A DNA stretch of 64,000 bases from Marsupella aquatica (taxonomy: Eukaryota; Plantae; Marchantiophyta), in assembly GCA_973895155.1 (NCBI GenBank), contig OZ316899.1, forward strand, positions 7,505,241-7,569,240, given 5' to 3'. Below, one piece after another: positions 17,101 through 53,842 of this stretch; the stretch's first letter is position 1; each line of letters starts with the position of its first letter. The notes beneath the pieces are model-generated. The model made no database searches. It was given only the letters and a program-made list of their open reading frames with translations, and was not told where the DNA came from. Both the position numbers and the translations under genes were made by a program.

Positions 17101-17408
17101 ATTCAGAATACCAGGAAGTCCCGGCTGACAGCTACTTCGCAATTGAGGCCACCTTTTTGGAATCAATTATCATGGATAAAGAAACCAAATCACAGGTTCA
17201 AGTGGAGGAACTTGTTCTATCAAAGGATCCCAACGCCATGATGGTGGATTTTCATCAAGCGCTATGGCACAGTGGCCGGAGTCGGCAGCGCTGGTTGATG
17301 AAAAGGTCACTCCGATTACAAAGACTCACTCGGCAGACCAGGCAACTACATAGACAAATCAGGAGGCATTGCAGTCAATTTGAGAAGGGGTACCTGCTCT
17401 CACAATAA
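14106..17408 (+). pseudogene. gag: gag-protease of element B
   Basis: MNEFTPRE start homologous to A; three CCHC knuckles; PIDGGSG; stops and frameshifts. Confidence 0.9.
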
Positions 17409-20206: not shown

Positions 20207-23200
20207 GTGGAGCAGAGGAAGATGTTGTCGGATGACCAGTTCAGGTCATTTCCAGGGCCTTCCACTAAGAATGGGTTCTTCAGGAATCAATGTACAAACT
20301 CGCATATAGGGCAGCTGATTGATTTCCTGAGCGTCACGTTGCATTGTACCTTGCCGAGAGCAGAAATCGGCAAAGCCCAAGTATTTTTGGTGGAGAATAT
20401 CGATTCAAGCCGAGACTACAATGGCTATCTCTTAATGCAGTTGAAGAAGGCATTGAATGAAGAGAAGTTGAGTATTGGGGAAGGAGCGGTATCCAGACTA
20501 GGGTACCATCTGCAATTACTTTGACAATATGCAAGAAGCCAGTTTTTTGCACCAGTGTTGCCTATACAGGAGCGGATGCCGATCACTACACCACTTGAGG
20601 AGATGGGGGAGGACGAGCAGTCCCTGAACAAGCGACGGCAAGAGAAGAAGTCGGCAATACAGGCAATCCAAGGATGGGAGAATTCCCCTCTCAAGGAACC
20701 AGAGGTGGTAACATATGATGTGGTGAGAAATCTGCTGCGACGGCCTACTCATAATAACCCATATGCAGGTATTCAACTGGTAGAGAGGAAGATGAATGCC
20801 GAAGAAAGAAAGAAATGAGATGAGCAAATGGATTCGAAGTCAAAAGGTGGAAGCCCAGGCTGAAGTCCGGAGAGGCCAGTCCTTAGAGCTTCTAGCCGAG
20901 GCTGAAGTCCACAGAGGCCAGTCCTTAGAGCTTCGAGCCGAGGCCGAAGTCCGGAGAGGCCAGTCCTTAGAGCTTCTAGCCCAGGCCGAAGTTTGGAGAG
21001 GCCAGTCCTTAGAGCTTCTAGCCGAGGCTGAAGTCCAGAGAGGCCAGTCCTTAGAGCTTCTAGCCGAGGCCAAAGTCCAGAGAGGCCAGTCCTTAGAGCT
21101 TCTAGCCGGGCCCGAGTGGAGGGACCGGTGGAGGTAAATCAACCAGTGGCAGCCCAACAATACTCAGAGGAGGAGATTGGGGGCTTTGCAGAAGAGGCCG
21201 GCATGCTCAGTAGTCAGGTTAATGTGGATGACTACGACGATGATTCTGTCGATCATGGGGAGAGACCGGTGCCGGGAGTGAGAACGTTGGGAAGGTTTTG
21301 TAGAAGACTTCCCTCAGTCTTTTATGGCAAGCCAGAGGATCAAAAAACCCCAGAGTCTCCTCCACCGGACGTGACACCATTGGAATTTGACCGAATGAAG
21401 GAAGCCGAGCCAGGTCTGAAGGAGAAACTCGACGAGTGGAGGGCCCGAAATGACATGCAGGAACGACAGCTACGAGGCGGTGATTGGCCGGAGGAAATAA
21501 GACGGCTTAGTGAGAAGCAGGTTGAACCTCTCACTGACTTTGATCAATTACGGGCAGAAGCCTGGGAGAAACGGCCTTGTTGGCAGATGCCAGTATCACC
21601 TGGCAAGTCAAAATATGCCAGGGATCGGGCTAGGGAGTATGGAGACATGTGTGGACTGCTAGCCTTAGAAATTTTCGGCAATGAGTTAGAATCCGGACCA
21701 TTTCTTAGAAAGGAAATGGCTCACCAAACAAGGTTGGAGGAGGCAATGACGTTGGAGCGATTAAAGAAAGAAGAGGTAATCGCTCGGCTTCGCTCCATGG
21801 AAGCCAAAGTTGCTAAGACAAAGTCTGATCAACCAACTTAGCAGGATCTCTTGGCTGAGCAACAGGAATTGGAAGTGGCGAACAACCAATTGGAAAACTA
21901 CCAGCAGATCAAGGAAAAATTGACGAAGGTAGAGCTGGAGTTAGCCGATTCAAAAGCAGAGGTACAGGGTCTAAATTGCCAAGTTGAGAGGCTCAGAAAG
22001 ATGGCTAAGGAGCAGGCCACCCAGAGCGAGAAGGCCTTGGTAGAAGCCCAAAGGAAGTATGACAAGTTACTCGACCGGTTGGAGGCCATGCGTGAGAAGC
22101 ATGAGGACGCCATTTGCACAGCGGCCAATGATCACCTAAGCCGAGTCCAACAGATACGCAAGGAGCTTCAGGAGGAGCTAATCAGGACAAAGCAGGCATG
22201 GATGGACGAGGTCATAAAGCTGGAAAGCATCAACGATTCCCAAAGAACCGCTTTGGATAAGTAGGAGTTTGAGATTGTGCAGATCTTAAACGAGGAGCTC
22301 AAGACGGCCAAAGAAGAGGCGCACCGGCTTAATGAGGAGGTTGAGGATTTATCCCAAGAGCTGGAGGAGGCCAAAGACAAGATGATCGGCTTGCAAAGGC
22401 ATGCAGATAATCAAACAGAGAAGTTGCAAAAGTATGCCGAAGCCAAGCACGAATCACCAACTGGACGGGCTCCCGCTAGTGGCGTGGTCGCCGGGAATAC
22501 TGAGGTGCCAAAGCCGACATCTATATTGTTAAGAGTAACTGGGGGTAAGGCAATACAGTTGGTTGCAGATCTGGCCAAAACATTCATGGGGCCAGTAGGT
22601 ACTTATGGGGTACCTCTCAAAGCCACGCCAGAAGAGGTTGAGAGTATGGCCGCCCACATTTGTGGGACTGTTGCTACAAAGGCAGCCGTGGTAGAGATAA
22701 GTAATGCCGATGAACTTGGAGCTGCGGTAACAGGTTCAGACACTGGTACAGCCACCATGGACTACCAGAATGTGAAGCCGTGGAAGATCAATACAGAACG
22801 TATTGGAGAGCAGGCTTGGATTGAGGAAGTGAAGGCCAACGCTATCCAAGCCGTTTCCCAAGAGGATGCCGATGCCGCTGCCGATGCCGGGGCCGACAAA
22901 CCAGAACCCAAAGTTAAAGGGATCAAGCCGGAGCCGATGGTAGGAGAAGGCGTAGAGTCAGAAGATTCGGGCTTACCCCCGATCATCTAACAATTAAGGA
23001 GGGCCAGTCATCGGTTGGAAGGAGGACGTGGCGGTAGGAGAAGGGCTTGGGCCAGAAGGGCGCGGCCGTTGTAGGATGGGATAGGGCAAGTAGCGCCCTG
23101 TCGGCTTAGGCAGTATTAGATGCTCGGTTCCCACAGGGTTTCGGGCTAGTCAAGTTTTTTAGGTGATAGTTTTTTTAGTTGGATTATTGCGGTGGAAGGC

Positions 23201-23888
23201 CGTGAGTTGTGGTTAGGATTTCCGCCTTTTCCCCTGAATGCGCTGCAAGGATAAAAACCTGGGCAGCGTGGCTCGGGGAGCTTTTTCTTAGTCAAGACTC
23301 TAGTGTAAAGTCAGTATTGCTAGCATACAGCTCTCGGCTAAATCTAGACCGCAGATTATCAGTAAACCACAAATTTCCATTTTTGTGCAATTGTTTGAAT
23401 TGAGTTGGCCTTGTTGCCTAGTTCGCAGATTCTTGCAATCATGGCGTTGTGTGTTGTGATACTTGTCACTTGATCAATTTGAGTCGGTTAGAGCGATATT
23501 GTGAAGCTATACGATCGCATTGTCTCGATTGGAGACTGCCAAACCAAACTCTGAGAGAAAAGTGAGGATTGAGAGTGTTTTGTTGGTTAAAGTGTGGGTT
23601 GAGTCGGTCTGAGAAAAACCTTTAGCCGGCTTAAGAGATTAAGCCGTAGAGGTACATTCTGGGGGCGGAATACAAACATACCCGACAAAGTCAATTGAGA
23701 ATTAGGTGTCACAGCAATGCACAATTAGCAAGCCCAGTGAAAGAATGGGTCCAGCATAGTGTGGATCGAGAGTAGATCGCATTTCCAAGCCAAATGGTAG
23801 CCAAACCACCATAAGCCGACCATAAGTAGGGGTTTATTGCCAGAGGCGGATGGTTCTTGGGGTTAGAGGTGTTGGGAAATGCGCCACA
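20207..23888 (+). repeat. 3' LTR of element B (5'-truncated); accessory ORF remnant 20207-22990
   Basis: Repeat of 10478-14042; ends GCGCCACA. Confidence 0.9.
20853..21110 (+). repeat. 42-bp tandem repeat, 6 copies
   Basis: Same unit as 11121-11253. Confidence 0.92.
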
Positions 23889-37718: not shown

Positions 37719-40076
37719 GTGTTTTACTCTTATTATTATTATTGTTGTTGAAATATGCCTTTCTAAAGTAACAAGGTATTATGGTAAGAACATCAACCAT
37801 AGCTAGAGAGCTCAAATCAATATCCACACACACTCATACTTCATTGATAGATAAATAAGGAATACAAAGGGTAATAACCTTATAGGTTGTTTGGTAACTG
37901 CCTTGTGTGGTGTTAACTATGCTTAGGGTAGCTAACCATTGTAGGGTTAGATTTTCACCCTTAACACTCCCCCTTGGTTGATATATGTAAAGTATCAACC
38001 ACACTAAAGATAAAAACTAACCTTACTGTAATTGTTAACTTTGTATCCTATTTAGGTGTGGTCTCATCAAAACCTCCCTGCGTTCTTCTAGAGGAAAGAG
38101 TGCCACCACCGACATTATATAGGACCATGTTAATAGAATGTTATTCTTTAAGTCATGGCTAAGTGTATTCAAAGAGTTAATATCTATCGCTTTTTACTTT
38201 AACCTAAAGAATATTCGGGTTGTTTCTACAAGCATGGTATCTATTGTGTGGACAGCGTAATGTTGATGGTTGAGTTTCGATAGTCGGTGGAGGCGTTGCG
38301 GGTTCATGAGCAGGAGCTGATTGGGTTGAAGCTTATCATGTTGGAGCTTATCAATTTGTAGTGAGCTCCGTTGAATCCCAAGAAGTTGATCAATGACAGA
38401 GTTGTGGTGGTAGCGGCTTGGTAAAGAGGTCTGCTCTGTTTTCAGCTATAGGGATCCATTTTATGCCCAATTTTACGTTGATCTTATCTCCTTGTTGCTC
38501 CTATGTAAAAAAAGATTTTTGGGGCTGTGTGTTTTATCCTATTGCCCTTTATGAAACCCTGTGCTATTTGATCCATGCAAGGTCTATTGTCTTCAAAGAT
38601 TGTTGTGGGCTTTTGTAGGGTTTGTATGCCGCAGCTTTTGTGAATATGATTAATTACTTGGCGGAGCCACATGCATTTGCGGCAGGCCTCATAGAGTGCT
38701 ATCACCTTTGAATGATTAGATGAGGTAGTGGTGAGTGTTTGCTTGGTGATTTTCCATGAAATCGCTCTGTCCATAAAGAAAGGCATAATAAACCTGTCTG
38801 AGATTTTGAATCATCCGGGTCTAAGAGGTAGCCTGCATCCGCATATCTAGTTACTTTGTTTGTTACTTTCTTGGGGAAGTAGAGATCCATATCCATTGTC
38901 CCTTGGAGGTATTGAATCACACGCTTTATTCCATTCCAATGGCGAATGGTTGGCTATGCACTGTGGTGAGCAAGTAGATTTATAGCAAATGCTATATCTG
39001 GTCGAGTCTGATTTGCCAGGTACATAAGGGCCCCTTTGGCCGAGAGGTATGGTTTCTCTGGGCCGATTACCTGCTCGTTCTCCATTTGTTTCTTGAACAT
39101 GTCTTTTGCCGGATATAATGAGCGCAGGTCCATTGGTGTGCTTACTGGCTTTGAATTTTGCATGTTGAACTGTTTAATAATCTTGGTGTATGTTGCTTGA
39201 TTTATCAGTATGCCGTCCGGTAGGTAGTCGAATTGCAGTCCCAAACAGAAGTTGGGTGTTCCAAGATCCTTCATTTTGAAGACTCCTTTTAGCTTGTCTG
39301 TTCTCTGTGCCGTTAACATAGGTGTCCCAAATATATTGATGTCGTCTACATATAATGCAATAATTGTTAAACATCACAATAACACCAACTGTTTTACTCA
39401 TCCAATTCCTTCATATACATAGTTGGTTGCCTAGGTGGTTGGTTGTATAACCGTCACGGGTTAGGGGTTTAGTCCTAACCTTAGGTAGACTTGTTCTAGG
39501 GGTTGCAACACTCCCCCTTGGATACATTGTTATAGAGAAGATGTAGACATTTAAAGTCTACCTTGACTATCTATTGGGAAATTGAGTGGTCTTCGAGTTT
39601 ATTGTATGGTAGGGGTATAATATGGTAAAAAAAAGGTGGGGTGTAACCTCATTAAAACCTCCCCTCCTTTCTTGTGGGAGGAAAGAGTGTTACCACCCGT
39701 CCCTTAGTTGAGTCGGGTTTGTCTAAGTAAGTGTAAATGTATAAAATTGTCTTAACCTAAAGGTTATTGGAAATTGTTCGGTAGTGTAAGGTGAGTTGTA
39801 GTTTGTAGAGTTGTCGTTGCAGTCGATCAGGTTGATGCTATGTTGTAGTGGTTTTGGTTGTCACGTAGGTGCTGCATCGATCGTCTTTGTGCGTGGTATT
39901 GTCTGCTTCTGTGAAGTTGATGTAATCACCATATCGGTGATTCTTGAAGTTTGTGTTGGTCTTCTGGTGGATTCATTGGTGGTGCGGTGAACTGGATTGT
40001 CAATTGGTGATGCTGGTCGATTGGTGATGCTGGTCGTCTTGAGTGTAGTGCCGCAGTTGGATAATCGGGGAGCAGT

Positions 40077-43000
40077 TGTGGTGCGTCCCATGGCTCCCTA
40101 AACCCAAGAAACCCCCCAGCTCAAGCCGATTCCCGCAGGTTTCGTGCTTGGCGAGGCCGTTTCCGCGGCTTAGCGGCATGGGACGCTGCTAACCTTCTAC
40201 TACTACTATTAACATTTTACACACATATACTGGACAGATCCTTCATCGGGTCATGAGATACGTAGCCGGCCTAATATAGGCCTTCCCCTGTCTTCCCCTG
40301 TCTTCCCCTCCGTCTTGTTAGGTATGTTTGGATTCCGCCGCCGGAATGATCCCCAATAGGCTTGGTTAAGCCGCTAAGACCTCTCTCAGCTCGACACATC
40401 CAACTCTCACTCCCCTGCTTACTTTCCTTCTTTCTGTTGATGTGGGCACTCTTCACACAAGTTAATGCGACACACAAATAGCAAAATGACTCATTCTGAC
40501 TGAGTCATACCATGCACTTGCCATACAAACAGTACATCTCATACACAAGTTCTGCGAACTAAGCCGTGAGGCCAACTCTATTCAGCTCTTAGGCATGAGG
40601 AAACATGAATATACACAAGGGTCACTGTATGACTAACCGAGAGCTTCTCGTACTACTTGATCCCAGCCCGGCTGATGCAAACTAAAAACTTGCTAAAGAA
40701 GAGGCCCTGAGCTCCCCGCTGCCCAGGTACTTATCCTGGTAGTGGATCCGCCATTCTTTGCATCGTAAGCCTAATCTACTTAACAGTAATCTACTTGCCC
40801 GAATCTACCTATGTACAGCAAGGCAGGAGCACAAGTGTTGCTCCTACCAGTGGGACCGCAATCCCACTAAGCTAAGTGTCAGGGCCGCTCCTGGTTCTGA
40901 TCCTAATCCTAAACGTGGAGATCCGTGCCCGCTCTGCCCACTCACGCCTCCTCCCTCCACGTCCGCCCTCCCTAAAAGGAACGGCGCCCTTGCACCGTCA
41001 CGACACCGGTGGTGGATCCTCAATGGACGCCCCCAACACTTCCTCCTCAGCCACTGCCGTTGGCCCGCCTACTGACAGATTACCTGCCCTTGACCGAGTC
41101 AACTCTCCCTCGGCCTGACTGGGTCCACCTTCGGCTTCAGCCTCGACACCGGCCTCGGCAATACCCACGGCTTCGGCTTCAGCCACCCCCACGGCTTCGG
41201 CTTCAGCCACTCCCTCGGCTTCGGCCTCCCCTTCCCCTAGGGTAGTTGGATCCTTAGCTGTGACCCTGTCTGGGGTCGGTGCCGGGTCTACCTCCTTGAT
41301 CACCACGGCCTGTGAAGTCGTATTACTCCTTGACCCTGAAGGTTTCCGCTTCTTCTTCGTTGGTGGCTCGGCAGCTGGTCCCTTCCCCTTCCCACTTACC
41401 TCCGGCACTGGTGCAGGTGGCGCGGCTTGTCCTTCGGCAATTACCACCCCTGGTAACTGGTTTGTCCCAACAGGAGATGGACCTGCTGCAGCTAAGCATT
41501 TAAATACTGCGGCTTGTTTCTTCAGCCGCTCTGTTTGGTTGTCGGCCCGCCGCTGTAGGTTCTCCATCTTCCTCGTGATTTCCTCCAACTCCTCTTGGGT
41601 TTCATCCAGGTCCTTACGTGCCCCCTCCAGCTCGTTTTTGGCCTCCTCCTGCTCCCTGTGGGCTTCCTCCAATTCCTTCTTCAAGGTAGCCTTCTCCTCC
41701 TGGGTTGCTCTTAGCTCCTTGTCGAGCTCTGCAATGATGACAGACTCCATCTGGTTCATCTTGGCGTAAGTCTGTTCGAGCATCTCGTCCTTCTCCCTTA
41801 GGTCGGCCTTGAAGCTGGCCGTCAGGGACGCAAGCTCCTGCTGCAGCGCCATAATCCCTTGATAGGATTTCCCTAACTCGACCTCCTTCTGCTCAAGGGC
41901 TCCGCGGATTTTCTCGAGCTCCCCTTTCAACGCCCATTCCTTTCTTTGGGTCTCCGCCATGGCCCGGCTGTTGGCTGTTATGTGGGCCTCCTCTGTATTC
42001 TTCAGCTCTTGCTTCCACTTTTCCCTTTCTTTGATCGTGTCGGCCAACTCTTCCTGCGTCTGAGTCAGTTTATCCTTGATATTCTGATTATCAGCCTGCG
42101 CGGCGTCCAACTGCCCCTGCATGATGTTCAGCTCATGTCGTTTAATCCGCAGTTCATCTTGGGCTTTCTTGGCCGCCCTTAGATCTTCAATCTCGGCTTC
42201 CATCCTCCTAAGCCGCCGAATGACCTCGTCCTTCTTGCTTCTCTCTAAAGCCACCGCTTCTTCTAATTGGTGCTTCTCCAACTGCTCCCTATGGAAAAAG
42301 GGTCCTACCTCCAACTCCTCTCCAAAGATGCCGAGCGCAAGTTCCCCACACATCTCACCATACTCCATGGCTCTATTCTTAGCGTAGGTGGAGTAAGTAG
42401 AAGTGATCGGCATCGCCCATCGTGGCCTCTGCTCCCAAGCCGTCCTGCGGATCTCTTCAATCGTGGCTAGAGGTTTGCTTCCTTTTTCGGCTAGCCGCCT
42501 GATGTCCTCCGGCCAATCTCCTCCTGGTAAATCCTTTTCCTTAGCCAGGGCGGCCTCTTCCTCCTGCTTGATTCGCTCCTGAAATTCCTGCACCGTCTAT
42601 TTTATGCCGTCGAAGCTCGGGGGAGCAACATCTGGTGGGGGAGACTCAGGGCTACTCTGCTGGTTGGGGTCCCCTCGCACTACCCTTGGAAGTGTGGGGA
42701 CAAACCGGCCACAGGTCCTTACTCCTGGAACGTGATGGTCCGACCCATAGCCGGAATTATCATGGCTGCAGTCCTCCACTGCCTCCTCTACCTCTTGGAT
42801 TTCCGGCTTCTCCCTCTCCTCTTCCTCGGTAGGAGCTTCAGGCAATTCTGCCTCAGATTCGGAGCTTGAGGTTCCCACGTACATTCGAACACCTGGCTTG
42901 GATTCCGGCCTGATTCTCTCGTCTCCAGCAAAGGGGTTTTCTCTTGTGAGCCGGTGTAGGCCTACCTCTGTAGTAGTGTCCTGCATGGTTGCCGTTGCCG

Positions 43001-44733
43001 TTGTTGTTGCCGATGCCGATTTCTTTTCTTTCTCCAGTAGTTTCAGCAGACTCTGCATGCCTGGTTGCTGCATCGGCAAGTCTTCCTTCCTGGGCCTAAA
43101 CACCTGCTCGATCGTAGGACTAACAGGTGGTTGAGGCTTCTCAGCCAACGGCCTCGGCGTTGGAGCTTCCTCGGGTGCCCTTACCTGCAGGGGAAGTACC
43201 GGGGCAAAAGTCTGACCTCTGGCATACCGGCACAACAGCGGCATGTGATAGCCAAGCCGCGACACGCTCCCCATGCCGATTACCTGCTGCTCCTCCTTTA
43301 AGATCTTCTTCAATTGGTTGAGGAGGTACCCGTTGTAGTCCCGGCTTGGGTCTGGCCTTTCTGCCAGATAGACCTGTGCCTTGCCGATCTCTGCCCTCGG
43401 CAAGTTACAATGCATGGTCACCCGCAAGAAGTCGATCATCTCTCCTATGTGCGGGTTGGTGCAGGTGTTCCGGAAGAAGCCATTCTTCGTTGATGGCCCG
43501 GGGAACGACCGGAACTCCTTGTCAGGCAAGGTCTTCCTGGTATCAACTTTGGTCTTATTGCCCATCGGCAAGCCAAACACTTCGGCAATCACCTTGGGAG
43601 TAAGATAGAAATCCTTCCCATATATCCTCGTGCAATTGGTCTCGGGTTCCCATGACCCCATGAATTCTAATAGGTCTGACTCCGGTACCTCCGGCTTCAG
43701 CCATGGTAATCTTACAAAGGCCTCCAAGCCGGATCCGGCCATGAAGCCTTGGTACTTCTTGGTCTGCATGGCCGTAAAGCATGCATCCTCCTCCCGTGCA
43801 AAATGTAGTTGCACCTCCACCGGTAGGGTTGCCGCCCAGCCCTTCCAGGTGTCATCCCTGGTTGGAATGGCCTTGATGGGATCGACCTCCTCCTCTTCGG
43901 CTTCTCCCTGCCTCCTGCTCTGCTGCTCGGCTGGCTTCTTTGGTGCCGTCGACCTCGTTCTTTTTGCCGGGGTGGCTTCATCGTTGACGGCTCCCTTCCT
44001 CTTCATCTCTGCTGCCGTGGAGGTTTCTCCTAGCACCGTTGCCTGGGTCCACCTTTCCGTGCTACCCTTTAATTCCCAGTGTATGTCGTTGCAGTTCTTG
44101 ATGGCCTCTCGGATGCCGACGACGCTGTCCTTGCAAAACAGAAGATCGTCGAGTTGATTGGAAGTAGGCGTCCACAGGAACTCGTCCTTGATGAGTTCGC
44201 CTCCTAAGAAAGCCGTCTTCTGCAGCTCCCACAATCGAGCGAGCTCCTGCCGTTCTCGAGCTGCCCTTTCTGACTCCTCGTCCTCGTAAGTCTTGATGTA
44301 CTCAGTTGCCCGTTCGAACAGGCATCCCCAGAAATGTGCCGCTTGATTGACGTTGCTCATACCCTCCTTAGGTTGATCGTCGGTATCTACTCTCTCCCCG
44401 AGTGCTTGCCTAAGCAGCTGACAGTAGTTGGCCTCCCGTAGTCGTCTGCCTAGTTCGTGCTCGCAAATGAGCCACCATCTCCTGCAAGCGCTCCTTACCC
44501 CTCTCCTCTGCCGGTCCTTCTTCCCGTTGATCCTTCCTAGCCGCCGACGCTTAACGCGCCCTAACCCTAATCGGGTTTTCACCCTCAGCCTTACCTCCGG
44601 CCTCTGCCCGGGTTCCATGGTTGCCCCTAATTGTTTATATTTTCCTTGTTTTGTCACTATACTAAGGTGTTCCTAGGGTGCCTTCCTGCTTTACCCACTT
44701 AACCGGCCGAGTGATTCCTGTCTAGGCATCACA
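40077..44733 (-). repeat. 3' LTR of element F (4657 bp)
   Basis: About a dozen substitutions relative to 49124-53780; preceded on the minus strand by the PPT. Confidence 0.95.
40998..44618 (-). pseudogene. LTR accessory ORF, 3' LTR copy with one CAG>TAG stop at 42597-42599
   Basis: The 686-aa and 531-aa ORFs are in one frame and otherwise nearly identical to the 1219-aa ORF. Confidence 0.92.
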
Positions 44734-45525
44734 TAGCTCCCCACTTAATTGTGAAGCGTCCTCGCGAACAACTTCATCTTCGTCCATATAGTATTTCTTG
44801 AGGCGGTCATAATGGATGCGAACTGGATATACCTCTCCCGTAATGTTGGCCAATTGCACGGAGCCATTGGGGAACATCATGGTTACTCTAAAGGGTCCTA
44901 ACCAGCGAGTGTAAAGCTTTCCTGGAAACCTACTATACCTACTGTCATAAAGTAGCACAAGATCACCGGTATGAATACTAACTACTTTTAACCTTTTATC
45001 ATACTGCTGCTTCATGATATTCTGTCTATATTCTACTCTCTCGGCTGAAATCATTCTCGCTTCCTCTAAAGCTTCTAACCTATATTCTCGCTCCTTTAGG
45101 CTCTCCTCCGCTGAGGCTCTTTCTTCAATTGTAACTTGAAATGTCGGTATCTCAAGTTGCATGGGTACCAGGGCTTCTTGTCCAAAGGTTAAGAAGAAGG
45201 GTGTATGACCGGTAGTGGATTTATAGGCAAGATTGTAAGCAAAAACAGCAGCAAACAATTTATCATCCCAATCGAGTTTGTTCTGAGCTACTGTTTTGTT
45301 CAATATCTTTCCTATGATTCCGTTTGCTCGTTCTGTCAACCCGTTTGCCTTTGGATGGTAGGGAGTAGTAGGCCTATGTTTAACTAAATACTGCTCATTT
45401 AAACGACTAATTATATCATTCAAAAAATGGGTTCCTCTATCACTAACTAATTCTAGGGGTGCTCCATACCTGGTGAAGATCTGCTCATACATGAATCTAG
45501 CCGTAGTAATTGCATCATCCTTCGT
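44722..45525 (-). pseudogene. C-terminal half of the element F integrase
   Basis: VSDRGTHF, GLTER, WLGPF; ends SGELCDA* overlapping the PPT and the first 12 nt of the LTR. Confidence 0.9.
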
Positions 45526-46130
45526 ATTGGTTGTCGAAATGATTTGGCTCCTAACATGAGATCAATTCGATGTTCCCCTAGTGTTGGATCTACGCCCTTT
45601 AGATCTTGGTGACTCCATGCAAACACATCCTGAAATTCAATTAATAAGTCACTGATCTCTTTCTCGAGCTCAGGTGCTAGGTTTCTCCCTAAGTTCAGTT
45701 CTCTTCCCTCTCCTAAGTCGAGCTTCCGATATTGCCGTGCTTGGATCATATTAATCTGCTTCTTCAAATTCGGGTCCAGTTCGGCTTCCAGTCTCTCTAA
45801 TCTCATACCTCCATAAACTGGGATCTCGGCTGGACTAGCCGAGTCGGTCCCTTCCTTGGTGTCCATAGATTGTCCCCTTACCGGTCTATTCGGTTTTGAA
45901 TTAGTGGTCGGCTCCCCTTCCTGCCTTGGCTCTGGATCGTGTCTGTCCATCTCATCCACCTCTTGCTCCTGAGAGTTAGGCCGTTGTGCTCTCTCGGCTT
46001 CTAATAGGGCCTCAATTTGTTCTGCCCTCGTAATCGGCTTGTATGCCGATCCCTTGGTATTTAATTCCTTGCCGATGATCGAGGGCGTTGTGGACCACGT
46101 CGGCTCTGCCACAACGCCTGCAAAAAATCC
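45526..46130 (-). pseudogene. pol N-terminus of element F (linker and RT start) up to the deletion junction
   Basis: The -1 frame after GGATTTT reads GFFAGVVAEP...DVFAWS...FRQPIRR. Confidence 0.85.
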
Positions 46131-49054
46131 ACTGTCCCTGCTACTGCTCCCCACTTAGCCGTTTCATCCAATTGGTCTACATCCTTAACTTCCTCCGGAA
46201 TTGCAGCTAAAAAGGTGGATTCTATTGTAAAGCAGTCCTCGACCTCTTCGTCTTCTTCTTCCAAGTCACCTTCCATTGGTTCTTGCCATAATCCGCTGGG
46301 GGGTACCTCTGGTCCAAAGACACCTTCTTCGGTTAGGTTAGTGAAGCATTCTAACCAACGTACTTCATCGGCTGACCCCAGTCCACTATCGTACCCATCT
46401 ACTTCCCTTATGCTTTTCCTACGGTCATCCTTAGTGTCCCAGGATACCGTGATAGAGGGGGTCCCGAAAGTGAACTGCTTTTTACCCCAATCTTCTATTA
46501 CCTCGGCTAGGTACAGCCATGGCCTACCAATCAATAGCCGGAATGACGTAGGATTTACCGGCTTCATTACTACATAGTTAATGCTAAAGAAGATACCTCC
46601 TATCTCTGTCTTGATGCCGGTTAACACTCCCGTCGGAATGACCTGATATCCATTGGCCATGTTCAACACTCTTCCAGTCATCTCCGGTGTTAGACCCCAC
46701 CCTTTTGCTGTTGAATCAATCATAATACATACCCCTGATCCTCCATCGATGGGTACCCGTAGTAATAATTCTCCTTGAATCATTAATGGTAATGCTGGGG
46801 CTCCTTGATCTTCTTCTATCATTAGTACGTCGGATCTGGTTGCTACCTTGGGTAATCTCGGCTTGCCGAGAATAGCCTTCCTTAATTGCTTCCGGAAGTA
46901 CGGGCTATTTTTCAATAGTTGACCTACTGTTGCCGAGACTCTAGATTCTAGTACATCTTTAGCCAGGTCATAGGGAACAATCGGCTTCTCTTCTGGTGGT
47001 GTTTCCGTCTTGGATTCGGCCAGTTTTGCCACGCTAGTCTCCACAGCTGTTGGGTCTTCCGAAGCAAACAATGCTTTTGCTCGTTTTACATCCTTGGCAA
47101 TGGCTTCGGTATTCTCCAGGGTTTCTAATTCTCTTAGTTGTTCCTTAACACTAGCCGTAACAGAGGGGTAGAACAACTTAGGATGATCTCGATTGAAGTC
47201 GCTATCTTGTGAAGGATTGGTTTCACTGGTGGGCTCATGGCTTACCTGTATTGCCAGAGCCCTCCCTTCTCCTTCTGTTGATGTTGACCAAGAGTCGATC
47301 CTTTCCTTCGTAACCTTCCCTTTATTTTTGGCCAGCCCATCCCACCTTTCCTTCCTTCTGGTAGATCGAGTAGAGACCCGGTAGCAATCATGATCTAAAT
47401 CCTCCTCTGAGAAGGTTGATAGGGCTTCGGCCTCATCATCAGATGGTACGAACTCTGCCTCGGCATCCTCTTGCCATCCTAGTTCGATGTGGTTGATTTG
47501 AACTCCTCCGGGGGTAGTACCTGGCGGTAAGATCTTGATCGGCAAAAGCTTATGATTTGCGGCCAGGCCTGCCAACCAAGTAGGACATTGCCCTAGCATA
47601 TGACCTTCCTGTCGGCATCCCATACATAGCTGAGCTGGTTGTCCATCACCCTGTTTGCGTGCATTCGGGCATTCTCTAGCAAAATGGCCAGGTTGACCAC
47701 AATTATAGCACGCCGCAAATCTTTGCACATTCGGCCTAGGAGGTACTGACGGGTTCTGAATAATCCGAGGATACATCTCTCCTGGATTGTTCCTTAACCC
47801 TGACCACAGAGATGCAGGTCTGTTGGATAGGTCTCGTGCTCCAGTCTCACTGATGCCGAAAACACTATCAGCGGCATCTCCCAAAAAGTACTCTACTTCT
47901 CCCTGACATGGTCTGATCTCGGCCACATGCCGAACATGATTAGTATTAAGCTTAGGACAAGCATCTTTATGGTGTCCGGTTTTATAACATAAGGCACACC
48001 ATACAGAGCTATCCTCCTGTACTACCTTCTTCTTTGGTTTTACCTCTGCAATGATAGCCTTAAGTTGCTCGGTAAGGGCTACGATGTTATCTGGTGGCTT
48101 AGCCTCCATCTTGACTTTCGTCTTCCCTCTCCTTCTGCCCTTCCTTTTCCTAGTTTTTTCTTCTTCAGAACTAGAAGATGACTCACTCTTGCTACTCCCA
48201 CTATTCGAGCTTGACTTATCACTTCTAGACTTCTTGGAATGTTTCTTCTTCTTATCTTTTTTCTTGTGGGGTGATCCCTCCTCTGATGAGGAACTCTCAG
48301 ACTTAAGCTGTTTCTTCCGGCTTGTGATATCTGCATTAATGTATAATTGAATATCCTTAATTGCTTCGGCTAAGGTCTCCGGGTTCTCCTTCCTAATTGC
48401 AAAACTCATCTTCTGTGGCAAAGCATTCACCAACCATTGAAGTTGCATACCTTCAGATGCATTGGTCTTTGTACGTCTTACCAGTTTCTGAAAGCGTTGC
48501 AAGAACTTCCTGAAGGATTTGTTCTCCTTGAACCGAAGTTGTCCCAACTTCAGCACTGCTAGTTCTGAAGTTCCAATGGGTCGAAACTCCTTAACAAAGA
48601 GTGTTTTGAAGATATCCCAGATGGCTTGATCTTCCACATCTAATGCTCTGTACCAAGGCCTAGCCTCACCCTTGAACAGGCCGGGAAGAATCTGCATCTT
48701 GATGGCCGATTCTCCATTTGCTGCAGCGGTTCCCTCGAAATCATCCAACCATTCGTCCGGATCCTCATCTCCTCTCCCATGAAATGCCTTGTAATGTATG
48801 CGCGACCGCTGGCTCAATCTGGTCCCTGGCCTCTCGTCTGGCCGTGCCTCTGGTTCCCCCATGTCGGTTGGAGACTCACTTCTCCTTACCGACTCTTCTT
48901 CTGGTATGTCTTCTTCGACGCCACTTCCAGTTTCGGAGCTACCAGCTCTTTCTGCCCCTCTCAGTCGCTGTGTATCATGCCACCCGGCGAGCTGCTGCAG
49001 TCGAGCTCTCTCCCGTTGAATCACTCTTTCTTCCCTCGGCGTAAGGTCAGTCAT
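46061..49054 (-). CDS. gag: Intact Gag-protease polyprotein (997 aa)
   Basis: Retrotransposon gag core (DPDEWL...ARPWY...FVKEF), Ser/Lys-rich linker, three CCHC knuckles, PIDGGSG protease. Confidence 0.95.
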   Translation of the reverse strand: MTDLTPREERVIQRERARLQQLAGWHDTQRLRGAERAGSSETGSGVEEDIPEEESVRRSESPTDMGEPEARPDERPGTRLSQRSRIHYKAFHGRGDEDPDEWLDDFEGTAAANGESAIKMQILPGLFKGEARPWYRALDVEDQAIWDIFKTLFVKEFRPIGTSELAVLKLGQLRFKENKSFRKFLQRFQKLVRRTKTNASEGMQLQWLVNALPQKMSFAIRKENPETLAEAIKDIQLYINADITSRKKQLKSESSSSEEGSPHKKKDKKKKHSKKSRSDKSSSNSGSSKSESSSSSEEEKTRKRKGRRRGKTKVKMEAKPPDNIVALTEQLKAIIAEVKPKKKVVQEDSSVWCALCYKTGHHKDACPKLNTNHVRHVAEIRPCQGEVEYFLGDAADSVFGISETGARDLSNRPASLWSGLRNNPGEMYPRIIQNPSVPPRPNVQRFAACYNCGQPGHFARECPNARKQGDGQPAQLCMGCRQEGHMLGQCPTWLAGLAANHKLLPIKILPPGTTPGGVQINHIELGWQEDAEAEFVPSDDEAEALSTFSEEDLDHDCYRVSTRSTRRKERWDGLAKNKGKVTKERIDSWSTSTEGEGRALAIQVSHEPTSETNPSQDSDFNRDHPKLFYPSVTASVKEQLRELETLENTEAIAKDVKRAKALFASEDPTAVETSVAKLAESKTETPPEEKPIVPYDLAKDVLESRVSATVGQLLKNSPYFRKQLRKAILGKPRLPKVATRSDVLMIEEDQGAPALPLMIQGELLLRVPIDGGSGVCIMIDSTAKGWGLTPEMTGRVLNMANGYQVIPTGVLTGIKTEIGGIFFSINYVVMKPVNPTSFRLLIGRPWLYLAEVIEDWGKKQFTFGTPSITVSWDTKDDRRKSIREVDGYDSGLGSADEVRWLECFTNLTEEGVFGPEVPPSGLWQEPMEGDLEEEDEEVEDCFTIESTFLAAIPEEVKDVDQLDETAKWGAVAGTVDFLQALWQSRRGPQRPRSSARN

Positions 49055-49123
49055 TACCTACGCTTCCGTTCTAACTTCATATCTCACGGCTTAAGAAATG
49101 CCCCCTCCATCTAGCGCCAAAAA

Positions 49124-52100
49124 TGTGGTGCGTCCCATGGCTCCCTAAACCCAAGAAACCCCCCAGCTCAAGCCGATTCCCGCAGGTTTCGCGCTTGGCG
49201 AGGCCGTTTCCGCGGCTTAGTGGCATGGGACGCTGCTAACCTTCTACTACTACTATTAACATTTTACACACATATACTGGACAGATCCTTCATCGGGTCA
49301 TGAGATACGTAGCCGGCCTAATATAGGCCTTCCCCTGTCTTCCCCTGTCTTCCCCTCCGTCTTGTTAGGTATGTTTGGATTCCGCCGCCGGAATGATCCC
49401 CAATAGGCTTGGTTAAGCCGCTAAGACCTCTCTCAGCTCGACACATCCAACTCTCACTCCCCTGCTTACTTTCCTTCTTTCTGTTGATGTGGGCACTCTT
49501 CACACAAGTTAATGCGACACACAAATAGCAAAATGACTCATTCTGACTGAGTCATACCATGCACTTGCCATACAAACAGTACATCTCATACACAAGTTCT
49601 GCGAACTAAGCCGTGAGGCCAACTCTATTCAGCTCTTAGGCATGAGGAAACATGAATATACACAAGGGTCACTGTATGACTAACCGAGAGCTTCTCGTAC
49701 TACTTGATCCCAGCCCGGCTGGTGCAAACTAAAAACTTGCTAAAGAAGAGGCCCTGAGCTCCCCGCTGCCCAGGTACTTATCCTGGTAGTGGATCCGCCA
49801 TTCTTTGCATCGTAAGCCTGATCTACTTAACAGTAATCTACTTGCCCGAATCTACCTATGTACAGCAAGGCAAGAGCACAAGTGTTGCTCCTACCAGTGG
49901 GACCGCAATCCCACTAAGCTAAGTGTCAGGGCCGCTCCTGGTTCTGATCCTAATCCTAAACGTGGAGATCCGTGCCCGCCCTGCCCACTCACGCCTCCTC
50001 CCTCCACGTCCGCCCTCCCTAAAAGGAACGGCGCCCTTGCACCGTCACGACACCGGTGGTGGATCCTCAATGGACGCCCCCAACACTTCCTCCTCAGCCA
50101 CTGCCGTTGGCCCGCCTACTGACAGATTACCTGCCCTTGACCGAGTCAACTCTCCCTCGGCCTGACTGGGTCCACCTTCGGCTTCAGCCTCGACACCGGC
50201 CTCGGCAATACCCACGGCTTCGGCTTCAGCCACCCCCACGGCTTCGGCTTCAGCCACTCCCTCGGCTTCGGCCTCCCCTTCCCCTAGGGTAGTTGGATCC
50301 TTAGCTGTGACCCTGTCTGGGGTCGGTGCCGGGTCTACCTCCTTGATCACCACGGCCTGTGAAGTCGTATTACTCCTTGACCCTGAAGGTTTCCGCTTCT
50401 TCTTCGTTGGTGGCTCGGCAGCTGGTCCCTTCCCCTTCCCACTTACCTCCGGCACTGGTGCAGGTGGCGCGGCTTGTCCTTCGGCAATTACCACCCCTGG
50501 TAACTGGTTTGTCCCAACAGGAGATGGACCTGCTGCAGCTAAGCATTTAAATACTGCGGCTTGTTTCTTCAGCCGCTCTGTTTGGTTGTCGGCCCGCCGC
50601 TGTAGGTTCTCCATCTTCCTCGTGATTTCCTCCAACTCCTCTTGGGTTTCATCCAGGTCCTTACGTGCCCCCTCCAGCTCGTTTTTGGCCTCCTCCTGCT
50701 CCCTGTGGGCTTCCTCCAATTCCTTCTTCAAGGTAGCCTTCTCCTCCTGGGTTGCTCTTAGCTCCTTGTCGAGCTCTGCAATGATGACAGACTCCATCTG
50801 GTTCATCTTGGCGTAAGTCTGTTCGAGCATCTCGTCCTTCTCCCTTAGGTCGGCCTTGAAGCTGGCCGTCAGGGACGCAAGCTCCTGCTGCAGCGCCATA
50901 ATCCCTTGATAGGATTTCCCTAACTCGACCTCCTTCTGCTCAAGGGCTCCGCGGATTTTCTCGAGCTCCCCTTTCAACGCCCATTCCTTTCTTTGGGTCT
51001 CCGCCATGGCCCGGCTGTTGGCTGTTATGTGGGCCTCCTCTGTATTCTTCAGCTCTTGCTTCCACTTTTCCCTTTCTTTGATCGTGTCGGCCAACTCTTC
51101 CTGCGTCTGAGTCAGTTTATCCTTGATATTCTGATTATCAGCCTGCGCGGCGTCCAACTGCCCCTGCATGATGTTCAGCTCATGTCGTTTTATCCGCAGT
51201 TCATCTTGGGCTTTCTTGGCCGCCCTTAGATCTTCAATCTCGGCTTCCATCCTCCTAAGCCGCCGAATGACCTCGTCCTTCTTGCTTCTCTCTAAAGCCA
51301 CCGCTTCTTCTAATTGGTGCTTCTCCAACTGCTCCCTATGGAAAAAGGGTCCTACCTCCAACTCCTCTCCAAAGATGCCGAGCGCAAGTTCCCCACACAT
51401 CTCACCATACTCCATGGCTCTATTCTTAGCGTAGGTGGAGTAAGTAGAAGTGATCGGCATCGCCCATCGTGGCCTCTGCTCCCAAGCCGTCCTGCGGATC
51501 TCTTCAATCGTGGCTAGAGGTTTGCTTCCTTTTTCGGCTAGCCGCCTGATGTCCTCCGGCCAATCTCCTCCTGGTAAATCCTTTTCCTTAGCCAGGGCGG
51601 CCTCTTCCTCCTGCTTGATTCGCTCCTGAAATTCCTGCACCGTCTGTTTTATGTCGTCGAAGCTCGGGGGAGCAACATCTGGTGGGGGAGACTCAGGGCT
51701 ACTCTGCTGGTTGGGGTCCCCTCGCACTACCCTTGGAAGTGTGGGGACAAACCGGCCACAGGTCCTTACTCCTGGAACGTGATGGTCCGACCCATAGCCG
51801 GAATTATCATGGCTGCAGTCCTCCACTGCCTCCTCTACCTCTTGGATTTCCGGCTTCTCCCTCTCCTCTTCCTCGGTAGGAGCTTCAGGCAATTCTGCCT
51901 CAGATTCGGAGCTTGAGGTTCCCACGTACATTCGAACACCTGGCTTGGATTCCGGCCTGATTCTCTCGTCTCCAGCAAAGGGGTTTTCTCTTGTGAGCCG
52001 GTGTAGGCCTACCTCTGTAGTAGTGTCCTGCATGGTTGCCGTTGCCGTTGTTGTTGCCGATGCCGATTTCTTTTCTTTCTCCAGTAGTTTCAGCAGACTC

Positions 52101-53780
52101 TGCATGCCTGGTTGCTGCATCGGCAAGTCTTCCTTCCTGGGCCTAAACACCTGCTCGATCGTAGGACTAACAGGTGGTTGAGGCTTCTCAGCCAACGGCC
52201 TCGGCGTTGGAGCTTCCTCGGGTGCCCTTACCTGCAGGGGAAGTACCGGGGCAAAAGTCTGACCTCTGGCATACCGGCACAACAGCGGCATGTGATAGCC
52301 AAGCCGCGACACGCTCCCCATGCCGATTACCTGCTGCTCCTCCTTTAAGATCTTCTTCAATTGGTTGAGGAGGTACCCGTTGTAGTCCCGGCTTGGGTCT
52401 GGCCTTTCTGCCAGATAGACCTGTGCCTTGCCGATCTCTGCCCTCGGCAAGTTACAATGCATGGTCACCCGCAAGAAGTCGATCATCTCTCCTATGTGCG
52501 GGTTGGTGCAGGTGTTCCGGAAGAAGCCATTCTTCGTTGATGGCCCGGGGAACGACCGGAACTCCTTGTCAGGCAAGGTCTTCCTGGTATCAACTTTGGT
52601 CTTATTGCCCATCGGCAAGCCAAACACTTCGGCAATCACCTTGGGAGTAAGATAGAAATCCTTCCCATATATCCTCGTGCAATTGGTCTCGGGTTCCCAT
52701 GACCCCACGAATTCTAATAGGTCTGACTCCGGTACCTCCGGCTTCAGCCATGGTAATCTTACAAAGGCCTCCAAGCCGGATCCGGCCATGAAGCCTTGGT
52801 ACTTCTTGGTCTGCATGGCCGTAAAGCATGCATCCTCCTCCCGTGCAAAATGTAGTTGCACCTCCACCGGTAGGGTTGCCGCCCAGCCCTTCCAGGTGTC
52901 ATCCCTGGTTGGAATGGCCTTGATGGGATCGACCTCCTCCTCTTCGGCTTCTCCCTGCCTCCTGCTCTGCTGCTCGGCTGGCTTCTTTGGTGCCGTCGAC
53001 CTCGTTCTTTTTGCCGGGGTGGCTTCATCGTTGACGGCTCCCTTCCTCTTCATCTCTGCTGCCGTGGAGGTTTCTCCTAGCACCGTTGCCTGGGTCCACC
53101 TTTCCGTGCTACCCTTTAATTCCCAGTGTATGTCGTTGCAGTTCTTGATGGCCTCTCGGATGCCGACGATGCTGTCCTTGCAAAACAGAAGATCGTCGAG
53201 TTGATTGGAAGTAGGCGTCCACAGGAACTCGTCCTTGATGAGTTCGCCTCCTAAGAAAGCCGTCTTCTGCAGCTCCCACAATCGAGCGAGCTCCTGCCGT
53301 TCTCGAGCTGCCCTTTCTGACTCCTCGTCCTCGTAAGTCTTGATGTACTCAGTTGCCCGTTCGAACAGGCATCCCCAGAAATGTGCCGCTTGATTGACGT
53401 TGCTCATACCCTCCTTAGGTTGATCGTCGGTATCTACTCTCTCCCCGAGTGCTTGCCTAAGCAGCTGACAGTAGTTGGCCTCCCGTAGTCGTCTGCCTAG
53501 TTCGTGCTCGCAAATGAGCCACCATCTCCTGCAAGCGCTCCTTACCCCTCTCCTCTGCCGGTCCTTCTTCCCGTTGATCCTTCCTAGCCGCCGACGCTTA
53601 ACGCGCCCTAACCCTAATCGGGTTTTCACCCTCAGCCTTACCTCCGGCCTCTGCCCGGGTTCCATGGTTGCCCCTAATTGTTTATATTTTCCTTGTTTTG
53701 TCACTATACTAAGGTGTTCCTAGGGTGCCTTCCTGCTTTACCCACTTAACCGGCCGAGTGATTCCTGTCTAGGCATCACA
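49124..53780 (-). repeat. 5' LTR of element F (4657 bp)
   Basis: Minus strand TGTGATGC...GCACCACA (7/8 terminal inverted repeat); TSD on the outer side, PBS on the inner side. Confidence 0.95.
50045..53665 (-). CDS. Intact LTR-encoded accessory protein (1206 aa from the first ATG; 1219 aa from the GTG at 53704)
   Basis: Uninterrupted ORF: Arg-rich N-terminus, GKDFYLTPKVIAEVFGLPMG domain, ~250-aa coiled coil, KKKRK motif, acidic AEAE tail; homologues in A and B. Confidence 0.9.
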   Translation of the reverse strand: MEPGQRPEVRLRVKTRLGLGRVKRRRLGRINGKKDRQRRGVRSACRRWWLICEHELGRRLREANYCQLLRQALGERVDTDDQPKEGMSNVNQAAHFWGCLFERATEYIKTYEDEESERAARERQELARLWELQKTAFLGGELIKDEFLWTPTSNQLDDLLFCKDSIVGIREAIKNCNDIHWELKGSTERWTQATVLGETSTAAEMKRKGAVNDEATPAKRTRSTAPKKPAEQQSRRQGEAEEEEVDPIKAIPTRDDTWKGWAATLPVEVQLHFAREEDACFTAMQTKKYQGFMAGSGLEAFVRLPWLKPEVPESDLLEFVGSWEPETNCTRIYGKDFYLTPKVIAEVFGLPMGNKTKVDTRKTLPDKEFRSFPGPSTKNGFFRNTCTNPHIGEMIDFLRVTMHCNLPRAEIGKAQVYLAERPDPSRDYNGYLLNQLKKILKEEQQVIGMGSVSRLGYHMPLLCRYARGQTFAPVLPLQVRAPEEAPTPRPLAEKPQPPVSPTIEQVFRPRKEDLPMQQPGMQSLLKLLEKEKKSASATTTATATMQDTTTEVGLHRLTRENPFAGDERIRPESKPGVRMYVGTSSSESEAELPEAPTEEEEREKPEIQEVEEAVEDCSHDNSGYGSDHHVPGVRTCGRFVPTLPRVVRGDPNQQSSPESPPPDVAPPSFDDIKQTVQEFQERIKQEEEAALAKEKDLPGGDWPEDIRRLAEKGSKPLATIEEIRRTAWEQRPRWAMPITSTYSTYAKNRAMEYGEMCGELALGIFGEELEVGPFFHREQLEKHQLEEAVALERSKKDEVIRRLRRMEAEIEDLRAAKKAQDELRIKRHELNIMQGQLDAAQADNQNIKDKLTQTQEELADTIKEREKWKQELKNTEEAHITANSRAMAETQRKEWALKGELEKIRGALEQKEVELGKSYQGIMALQQELASLTASFKADLREKDEMLEQTYAKMNQMESVIIAELDKELRATQEEKATLKKELEEAHREQEEAKNELEGARKDLDETQEELEEITRKMENLQRRADNQTERLKKQAAVFKCLAAAGPSPVGTNQLPGVVIAEGQAAPPAPVPEVSGKGKGPAAEPPTKKKRKPSGSRSNTTSQAVVIKEVDPAPTPDRVTAKDPTTLGEGEAEAEGVAEAEAVGVAEAEAVGIAEAGVEAEAEGGPSQAEGELTRSRAGNLSVGGPTAVAEEEVLGASIEDPPPVS

Positions 53781-53842
53781 GCAGTGTTGTCTGTCTGGGA
53801 GCTGGAGGTAAGTGCGCGCTCCCCTTGAGTCTTGGAAGGTCT

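Follow-up and report, generated by a model that had tools for sequence, protein, structure and literature searches.

Element F and its LTRs

The window, a 64-kb stretch of Marsupella aquatica DNA, holds element F, which spans 53780-40077 on the minus strand, together with elements A and B on the plus strand (Table 1). Terminal direct repeats, TG..CA inverted ends, a target site duplication (TSD), a primer binding site (PBS) and a polypurine tract (PPT) are all present in F, confirming that it is an LTR retrotransposon. Pairwise comparison of its two LTRs, both 4657 bp long, gives 11 mismatches and no gaps. In minus-strand reading each LTR starts with TGTGATGC and ends with GCACCACA, with 7 of 8 bases inverted-complementary. 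The PBS-like 18-mer begins 4 nt past the 5′ LTR (at 49119) and may correspond to the 3′ end of a plant tRNA-Asn; no tRNA genes were found in the 64-kb window. The PPT is short, 10 nt with one T. A related copia stretch in the same window (23886-24170) aligns to both flanks of F with a 5-nt overlap and runs unbroken across the insertion point. This is what an empty site is expected to look like, so the flanks of F mark a true insertion point. The preliminary description had taken the repeats at 40077-44733 and 49124-53780 for true LTRs, and the termini, the GCAGT TSD, the PBS, the PPT and the empty-site homologue agree on this. LTRs of such length, up to about 5 kb, are already known (PMC6317226).

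Table 1. Positions of the elements in the window and of the features of element F.
Feature	Position	Strand	Remarks
Element A, F's family	3..10300	+	5′ LTR tail 3-110, internal 111-5825, 3′ LTR 5826-10300, decayed ORF
Element B, distant family	10301..23888	+	5′ LTR remnant 10301-14042 (cut by A), internal, 3′ LTR remnant 20183-23888
TSD beside 3′ LTR	40072..40076	.	GCAGT on +; sequence and empty-site homologue
3′ LTR of F, 4657 bp	40077..44733	-	PPT precedes it
LTR ORF, 3′ copy	40998..44672	-	One internal stop at 42599-42597; comparison with 5′ copy
Integrase core and C-terminus	44722..45561	-	Frame crosses PPT, stops at LTR bases 10-12
PPT	44737..44746	-	Within last integrase codons, 3 nt before 3′ LTR; sequence
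Deletion junction, RT start joined to integrase core	45515..45525	-	11-nt shared word; about 1.8 kb missing relative to B
gag (capsid, CCHC knuckle) and protease-like region, 998 codons	46061..49057	-	Pfam, comparison
PBS	49102..49119	-	After TTTT spacer; same motif in elements A and B
5′ LTR of F, 4657 bp	49124..53780	-	11 mismatches relative to 3′ LTR, TG..CA ends, PBS next
Non-coding LTR tail, 921 bp; likely ancestral short LTR	49124..50044	-	
LTR ORF, 5′ copy, open 1224 codons	50045..53719	-	First ATG 53665 (1206 aa); likely start ATG 53407 (1120 aa)
Coiled-coil region of ORF protein (P0001 ~790-1062)	50530..51350	-	Hydrophobic period 3.55 at 9.7x mean power; sub-threshold ATG16 match
Conserved core domain of ORF protein (P0001 ~275-520)	52160..52900	-	Transposase_32/ATHILA-like by language-model features only
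TATAAA at LTR base 95, candidate promoter of ORF	53681..53686	-	Sole consensus TATA box in F LTR; also in A
TSD beside 5′ LTR	53781..53785	.	GCAGT on +; sequence and empty-site homologue

The F copy has neither RT nor RNase H and no intact pol, making it a deletion derivative; it would need a helper, or it lost RT and RNase H after insertion. The protease match in Pfam is weak (E 0.29). The integrase stop falls at LTR bases 10-12 in both F and A, and pol runs into the LTR without a spacer.

The LTR reading frame and its selection

The ORF makes up over 70% of the F LTR. As had been reported, it lies within both LTRs and is open throughout in the 5′ copy, whereas among 1000 sequences simulated from the LTR with an order-2 Markov model the longest frame was 383 codons (median 151). 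A complete gene in each LTR, as also claimed, is too generous. The only break in the 3′ copy is at codon 692, where a C-to-T change makes a stop, and of the five LTR copies in the window that show the ORF just one is intact, the other four being broken or partial. A 12-nt purine run 40 nt past the ORF stop (50005) was considered as an old PPT and rejected, as there are 35 such runs on the same element strand.

Comparison of F with A gives an ORF dN/dS of 0.33 over 1184 codons (bootstrap 0.26-0.39), with 0.15 in the core and 0.27 in the coiled coil; the value for gag-protease is 0.21. The first 85 codons behave neutrally (1.42, interval 0.72-3.3). Judged by these ratios, the LTR ORF is under purifying selection from codon ~86 onward, so the selected protein is likely 1120 aa long, from the ATG at 53407, rather than the ~1200 aa first proposed. 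F and B give 0.28 and 0.32, values that are indicative only because dS (about 2) is near or at saturation. The dN/dS comparison among A, B and F that the preliminary description had put forward as a check speaks, for F against A, for a selected gene.

The same layout in elements A and B

Element A is an insertion independent of F. Its 3′ LTR shows the same PPT as in F, then TGTGATGC at 5826, the ORF, and GCACCACA at 10300. The earlier claim that A shares the layout of F therefore stands for the 3′ side; at the other end, the last 110 bp of the 5′ LTR are all of that LTR inside the window. About 0.5 kb of RT is missing from A, and RH is joined directly to INT. In element B, pol carries stops and its 3′ end is deleted. 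The expectation that B also duplicates the ORF with its LTR was borne out: ORF homologues occur in both LTR remnants (10301-14042 and 20183-23888) and are 92.5-95.5% identical, with the left end of neither remnant visible. The layout is common to A and the distant family B.

Read depth extends this view. The ratio of median depth between ORF and internal region was 3.75, 3.41, 3.18 and 3.34 in the four sequencing runs, the best of which may be the window's own sample. In all four, ORF depth was close to tail depth and more than three times that of the internal region. Contig depth is not equal to copy number, but the ORF-in-LTR layout looks family-wide on these figures, and a ratio exceeding 2 may point to solo LTRs. 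Placement of the LTR left end across copies is based on the read-depth runs together with elements F and A.

The ORF protein

The nearest language-model neighbours of the ORF protein were the PF20167 Transposase_32 and PF03078 ATHILA clusters (Atlas 0.85-0.88), a likeness at lead level only. Seven to eight of the ten best named Atlas matches belong to the PF20167/PF03078 clan, at scores below 0.9 and with 131-147 features in common. Pfam models PF20167, PF03078 and PF10536 were matched neither by the full ORF protein nor by any of 25 aligned sequences, and PF04195 had no match in the ORF protein. No membrane segment or signal peptide was seen in the protein (highest 19-residue hydropathy mean 0.98), so it is not an envelope. 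Clusters of basic residues occur at positions 41 and 1106, and the sequence has a heptad periodicity. From its sequence features, the product is soluble and combines a Transposase_32/ATHILA-like core, which is a lead only, with a long coiled coil.

Folding from an alignment gave a model of pLDDT 61, and single-sequence folding one of pLDDT 34. Searches with the pLDDT-61 model returned nothing at E 0.001 in PDB or BFVD, and a PDB sequence search with the protein was empty. Word-indexed protein searches found no match at E 0.001 among 5668 and among 5298 candidates; a profile search found three at that threshold among 7991. A metagenome scan with the core protein gave 68 pattern matches, none of them confirmed, and the PBS-junction pattern occurred in no viral and no metagenome contig searched. 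The named homologues come from Calypogeia fissa, where they are annotated as unnamed products, several of them only short pieces. Two near-identical broken homologue pairs in this species have mirrored accession order, a misfit with two direct-repeat LTRs. A profile built from the N-termini of four distant homologues matched the query weakly (E 0.059).

Classification and relation to known elements

Pfam matches in B and A give the domain order gag-PR-RT-RH-INT of Ty3/gypsy elements, from which F departs by its deletion of RT and RH. Neither an additional RNase H (aRH) nor a chromodomain had a Pfam match in the pol pieces scanned. The family of F is likely an Athila-like Ty3/gypsy lineage. With Athila it shares this domain order, the want of aRH and chromodomain matches, a 5-bp TSD, a sense ORF after pol, PF20167/PF03078-like features and predicted nuclear signals. 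Its size, about 15.5 kb if complete, lies within the Athila range of 7.3-22.8 kb, and Athila PBS types are tRNA-Asp, -Asn or -Ala (PMC6317226 supplement 5). In sunflower, a 3′ sense ORF of Athila, as in Athila 14 ORF(+), carries PF20167 and a predicted NLS (PMC11728184). The Athila ORF follows pol but precedes the PPT and has 487 aa in sunflower, whereas the F ORF of ~1120 aa lies beyond the PPT, in both LTRs; unlike in Athila, pol ends inside the LTR.

Tat elements (TatI-III, Ogre, Retand) were rejected as relatives since the pol pieces scanned match no additional RNase H, Tat Z1/Z2 still being compatible. With the Tat Z1/Z2 lineages of liverworts (PMC10508981, PMC13468544) the family shares the want of an additional RNase H, native RNase H motifs that look intact and, in all likelihood, a similar host group. 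The portions of these accounts consulted are silent on LTR-borne ORFs, and separating Tat Z1/Z2 from Athila needs a tree. Phygy/Selgy elements (4-bp TSD, short, no extra ORF) were likewise set aside, because the TSD of F has 5 bp and its extra ORF is long. Ogre and Retrosat2/RIRE3/RIRE8 resemble F in the size of their LTRs (3-5 kb) and in carrying an extra ORF whose function is unknown. In the Ogre/Retrosat2 type, however, that ORF is described as preceding gag-pol and is considered separately from the LTR (PMC3485330), while that of F is within it. Ogre also carries aRH and Retrosat2 groups with Tekay-type elements; F has no aRH match.

The LTR ORF of MMTV (sag) is likewise a coding sequence in the LTR that reverse transcription duplicates to both ends. 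HIV nef and foamy-virus bel are coding sequences overlapping U3, and the products of all of these genes are a few hundred residues long. Their bearers are vertebrate retroviruses without homology to F, a plant retrotransposon whose ORF fills most of its LTR. We found no precedent for an LTR-borne ORF among plant retrotransposons in the literature searched. TE-borne plant mobile domain (PMD) and TRP28 proteins are retrotransposon accessory proteins, as the F protein may be; they are nuclear, or predicted to be so, and frequently have coiled coils, and an anti-silencing role has been speculated for TE PMDs (PMC5418596). In contrast to F, their ORFs sit between the LTRs, and the F protein matches neither PF10536 nor PF04195.

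Probable origin and possible expression of the LTR ORF

We think it probable that F descends from an Athila-like Ty3/gypsy element in which the priming site for the plus strand shifted upstream to the end of pol, bringing what had been a 3′ accessory gene into the U3 of the LTR. Such a PPT shift would have placed that gene downstream of the PPT. By the standard mechanism, plus-strand DNA begins at the PPT and all sequence downstream would be copied to both ends at every new insertion, so the ORF would be duplicated at each transposition. The 921-bp non-coding tail is then likely the ancestral short LTR. The direction of change, from internal ORF to LTR, is inferred, since no relative with short LTRs and an internal ORF was obtained. 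We lean, with slightly less assurance, towards an ORF in U3, genomic RNA starting from the 0.9-kb tail, and an ORF transcript made from the base-95 TATA or by splicing. More tentatively, the 1120-aa product may be a soluble nuclear accessory factor that acts in trans on family chromatin or silencing.

As the TATA lies upstream of the ORF, a position of the ORF in R or U5 is also compatible with the data. The base-95 TATA would then be the main promoter, U3 would be about 120 bp, and the ORF would occupy a giant R or U5. From the 5′ LTR would come a short ORF mRNA ending within the tail, together with a genomic RNA made by read-through, and splicing would give access to gag. It is in keeping with this that the TATA is the only consensus one in 4657 bp, is kept in A and stands just before the first ATG, with the first 85 codons neutral and leader-like; extra ORFs upstream of gag are also known, as in Ogre and Retrosat2 (PMC3485330). 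But a 4.5-kb minus-strand strong-stop DNA would be required, and a 5′ origin would call for a new PBS and a new LTR terminus beyond the ORF. That pol ends inside the LTR and that the PF20167 ORF of Athila lies on the 3′ side argue instead for a 3′ origin, and many plant promoters have no consensus TATA box. We consider the R/U5 position unlikely. Somewhat less doubtful, yet still on the unlikely side, is that the ORF came into the LTR by the PPT shift and only its 3′ copy matters, expressed via splicing as in Athila, the 5′ and solo copies being silent and the duplication bringing no new function. Both LTRs are templated by one U3 per cycle, so selection on one copy explains the dN/dS, and in Arabidopsis Athila ORF2 is expressed from a spliced subgenomic RNA derived from the full-length transcript (PMC7197481). 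Against silence of the other copies, a conserved TATA 280 bp ahead of the conserved ATG is a possible promoter in each LTR, and the layout persisted over the split between F and B despite the burden of 3.7 kb that each copy bears. In origin this reading agrees with the U3 model, and the two differ only in expression.

It is very unlikely that the ORF was captured from the host or encodes a fusion protein of the envelope type. Env-like genes do occupy the place after pol (PMC7264820), but there is no membrane segment, the frame is single and open with no sign of introns, no solved or viral structure matched, and the named homologues are the unnamed Calypogeia products. Most improbable of all is that the 4.66-kb repeat is a tandem duplication, a short-LTR recombinant or an assembly error. 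One element in the window has both full LTRs, and none of the contigs examined covers the whole stretch; set against this are the TSD, the inverted ends, the empty-site homologue, the 11 differences between the LTR copies, the same LTR start in A, the ORF in both LTR remnants of B and the depth ratios of all four runs.

Implications

Plant LTRs are usually taken as non-coding, and here most of the LTR is selected coding sequence. The surveys consulted place extra ORFs solely on one side of pol or the other, inside the two LTRs, a scheme from which this ORF departs, and pipelines that scan for extra ORFs only there would miss such genes. A layout common to two distant families would be old, and a PPT shift would be a simple route to giant LTRs. 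Recombination between the LTRs would leave the whole ORF in place, retaining the accessory gene instead of removing it. The intact, discrete ORF cassette of F could be used for asking what Athila-type extra ORFs do. It is tempting, if doubtful, to see the LTR as a self-contained gene with its own promoter, a 1120-aa chromatin-acting or anti-silencing protein and a poly(A) signal, in which solo LTRs would be many expressed sources of a factor that acts in trans and aids the movement of the family, its RT-less derivatives included. If so, each insertion would deliver two gene copies, and solo LTRs would no longer be dead ends.

The LTRs of element F

Element F, a minus-strand retrotransposon, carries a gap-free direct repeat of 4657 bp that is 99.76% identical in the window self-comparison. 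Read on the minus strand, both copies start with TGTGATGC and end with GCACCACA, and GCAGT stands at the outer edge of each. Four T residues and then a PBS-like 18-mer, also present in elements A and B, lie downstream of the 5′ copy; a purine tract of 10 nt, then 3 nt, lies upstream of the 3′ copy. When each flank of F is aligned alone, together they cover a related copia stretch from one end to the other and overlap by 5 nt, and by sequence comparison this stretch behaves as expected of an empty site. Together these features identify the repeats as LTRs of one insertion, bearing out the preliminary description. We regard the architecture, a long ORF inside each LTR, as almost certainly real.

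F interrupts the 3′ LTR of a Ty1/copia element ~40 bp in from its edge. The 3′ end of element B is directly followed by the PPT of another, related copia element and lies ~60 bp from the point homologous to the F site. Two insertions near one homologous site may be due to targeting, or to coincidence in a region rich in repeats.

Positions of features in the window
Feature	Strand	Position	Remark
Element F	minus	53780-40077	
F 5′ LTR	minus	49124-53780	
F 3′ LTR	minus	40077-44733	
ORF frame, 5′ copy	minus	53719-50045	
Second in-frame ATG	minus	53407	
LTR tail, 5′ LTR	minus	49124-50044	921 bp, non-coding
Tail differences		49192-49980 / 40145-40933	5′ / 3′ LTR
Empty-site homologue		23886-24170	copia
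copia sequence flanking F		53781-53830, 40076-39365	
Element A	plus	3-10300	family of F
A 3′ LTR	plus	starts 5826	4475 bp
A tail deletion	plus	9857-9904	~260 bp absent
Tail deletion, run X2		49398-49982	
Element B	plus	10301-23888	distant family
B tandem units	plus	20794-21115, 11121-11258	~42 bp
copia element beside B		23889-24904	
Direct repeat		28627-30014, 33756-35143	1388 bp, 100% identity
Enclosed frame	minus	30581-32542	653 codons
Decayed Ty1/copia		25298-28428, 35090-36520, 54503-58428	RVT_2, GAG-pre-integrase matches

Coding capacity and selection

The ORF is open across 1224 codons in the 5′ LTR of F, while the longest frame in 1000 simulations has 383. Five of the 11 differences between the F LTRs fall inside it, among them a stop at codon 692 in the 3′ LTR. 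Of the dN/dS comparisons among A, B and F suggested in the preliminary description, F versus A indicates purifying selection, with 0.33 over 1184 codons (bootstrap 0.26-0.39) and gag-protease comparably low at 0.21. F versus B has a dS of about 2. Counted from the first ATG, the F versus A ratio is 1.42 at codons 1-85, then by successive region 0.25, 0.15 (core, residues ~275-520), 0.34, 0.19, 0.27 (coiled coil, residues ~790-1062) and 0.63 (tail of the frame). Because neutral-like codons are followed by low ratios, selection starts at the second in-frame ATG, whose Met is the start in 4/7 homologue N-termini, albeit weakly aligned. A gene of ~1200 aa had been proposed; the open frame stands, and the product is likely shorter, at 1120 aa. 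The ORF architecture is under selection.

The product has basic clusters and a heptad region of 270 residues; a search of its sequence for a membrane segment found none. A full scan (residues 20-520) returned 23 proteins at E 0.001, the best 41% identical over the core, and 22 of them lack a Pfam match above cut-off. One match, adhesin-like and unrelated, was set aside as chance. Among 10 looked up, four come from the liverwort Calypogeia fissa, as unnamed products, and the others are unnamed records. By these relatives, the host of F is probably a liverwort or another bryophyte. The C. fissa proteins P0024, P0034, P0035 and P0036 represent two near-identical broken copies of an ORF homologue, ~ten accession numbers apart and in mirrored order. 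In the ESM Atlas, the nearest to the core is an unnamed cluster (0.91), with PF20167 Transposase_32 and PF03078 ATHILA clusters at 0.85-0.88, a model-based likeness that we treat as a lead only. A Pfam scan of the ORF protein and aligned relatives gave no PF20167 or PF03078 match, and the fold model (pLDDT 61) had no match in PDB or BFVD.

Elements A and B

The PPT and LTR start of A are identical to those of F. The ORF in its 3′ LTR is decayed, with 6 stops, and of the 5′ LTR no more than 110 bp falls in the window. A interrupts the ORF in the 5′ LTR of B. This second element has the ORF twice, upstream of the PBS and downstream of integrase, in copies 92.5-95.5% identical; the left ends of its LTRs lie outside view. 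A has the layout of F and B duplicates the ORF with its LTR, as previously described. Given the ORF in both B remnants and the F/B dS, the layout predates the F/B split. It is common to two families and probably to many copies.

The low-complexity middle of the B ORF contains short tandem units, more numerous in the 3′ remnant. The A tail lacks a segment that F and B have, and a bigger tail deletion occurs in sequencing run X2; these deletions may help to locate the promoter and poly(A) site.

Six of the 11 F LTR differences lie in the tail. Five are comparable with A, and at all five the 3′ LTR agrees with A and the 5′ LTR deviates; the one at 49192 is frequent as a variant in sequencing runs. 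The F LTRs may combine tracts from different templates, and if so LTR divergence exaggerates age.

Internal region and sequencing runs

The 4390-bp internal region of F encodes gag with a CCHC knuckle, a protease-like region, an RT start and an integrase core, in that order. Relative to B, F lacks ~1.8 kb, with an 11-nt shared word at the junction, and is therefore not autonomous; from A, too, ~0.5 kb of RT is absent. The integrase tail may resemble Athila and the PBS tRNA-Asn. Domain order in A and B is RT-RH-INT, and no Pfam match to an additional RNase H or chromodomain was found in the pol pieces scanned. With a 5-bp TSD this fits Athila or aRH-less Tat Z lineages (PMC6317226; PMC10508981). 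The integrase frame of both F and A passes through the PPT and ends at LTR bases 10-12, leaving zero spacer between pol and LTR, whereas OTA elements usually have long non-coding DNA and extra ORFs there (PMC6317226). The ORF starts ~360 bp after the integrase end, on the same strand.

The ORF occurs, whole or in part, in 16/18 runs listed, none on record as RNA, and 6 contain at least half of its words. Four runs from four studies were compared over 44734-54100 (11 ORF, 14 internal and 3 tail bins). Median ORF/internal depth is 3.75, 3.41, 3.18 and 3.34, and tail/internal depth, in the same order, 3.38, 5.49, 4.65 and 2.75, with the caveat that contig depth is not copy number and the best run is possibly the window's own sample. 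In X1 and X2 each ORF bin is deeper than each internal bin and the flank bin falls to 315 and 1353, respectively; X4 and X5 have spikes in single internal bins and no flank drop. ORF depth follows the tail, whereas an internal ORF would follow gag. ORF/internal ratios above 2 hint at solo LTRs. Among 40 of 410 variants listed, 9 are in the ORF, 6 of them synonymous. Contig joints in X2 link LTR end 49124 to 49978, 51720 and 52284, all inside the LTR, as would result from insertion of copies into their own LTRs, paralleling A within B's LTR ORF.

Origin, expression and function

Neither extra ORFs nor LTRs of up to ~5 kb are new. A survey sorts extra ORFs by whether they lie upstream or downstream of pol (PMC6317226), a review assigns them to the internal region between the LTRs (PMC7264820), and in Retrosat2 ORF0 lies before gag-pol (PMC3485330). 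Full-text literature, covering few subscription journals or repeat databases, yielded no case of a plant retrotransposon whose LTRs contain an ORF, though supplements 1 and 3 of the survey might include such elements (PMC6317226); papers on LTR ORFs dealt mainly with MMTV or with non-LTR elements.

The F ORF shares its slot after pol and its strand with the Athila 3′ sense ORF. Plus-strand synthesis begins at the PPT, so everything downstream is copied to both ends. The simplest history would start from an ancestral order pol-ORF-PPT-short LTR; a later switch to a new PPT at the pol end would have brought the ORF into the LTR. The sunflower Athila 3′ sense ORF has PF20167 (PMC11728184).

The sole consensus TATA box of the F LTR, at base 95 and present in A too, could drive the ORF itself, in which case each LTR would be a gene cassette. 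The same box may instead be the element's main promoter, placing the ORF in R/U5; or the ORF may be expressed by splicing from full-length RNA, by analogy with Athila ORF2 (PMC7197481). For the product we favour, tentatively, a nuclear trans-acting factor in chromatin or silencing, on the model of accessory proteins that are predicted to be nuclear (PMC7264820, PMC11728184, PMC5418596).

Remainder of the window

The 1388-bp repeat pair encloses a long frame with no Pfam match and could belong to a very recent insertion into a copia copy. No host gene was seen within the window, which looks like nested retrotransposons throughout, among them several decayed Ty1/copia elements.
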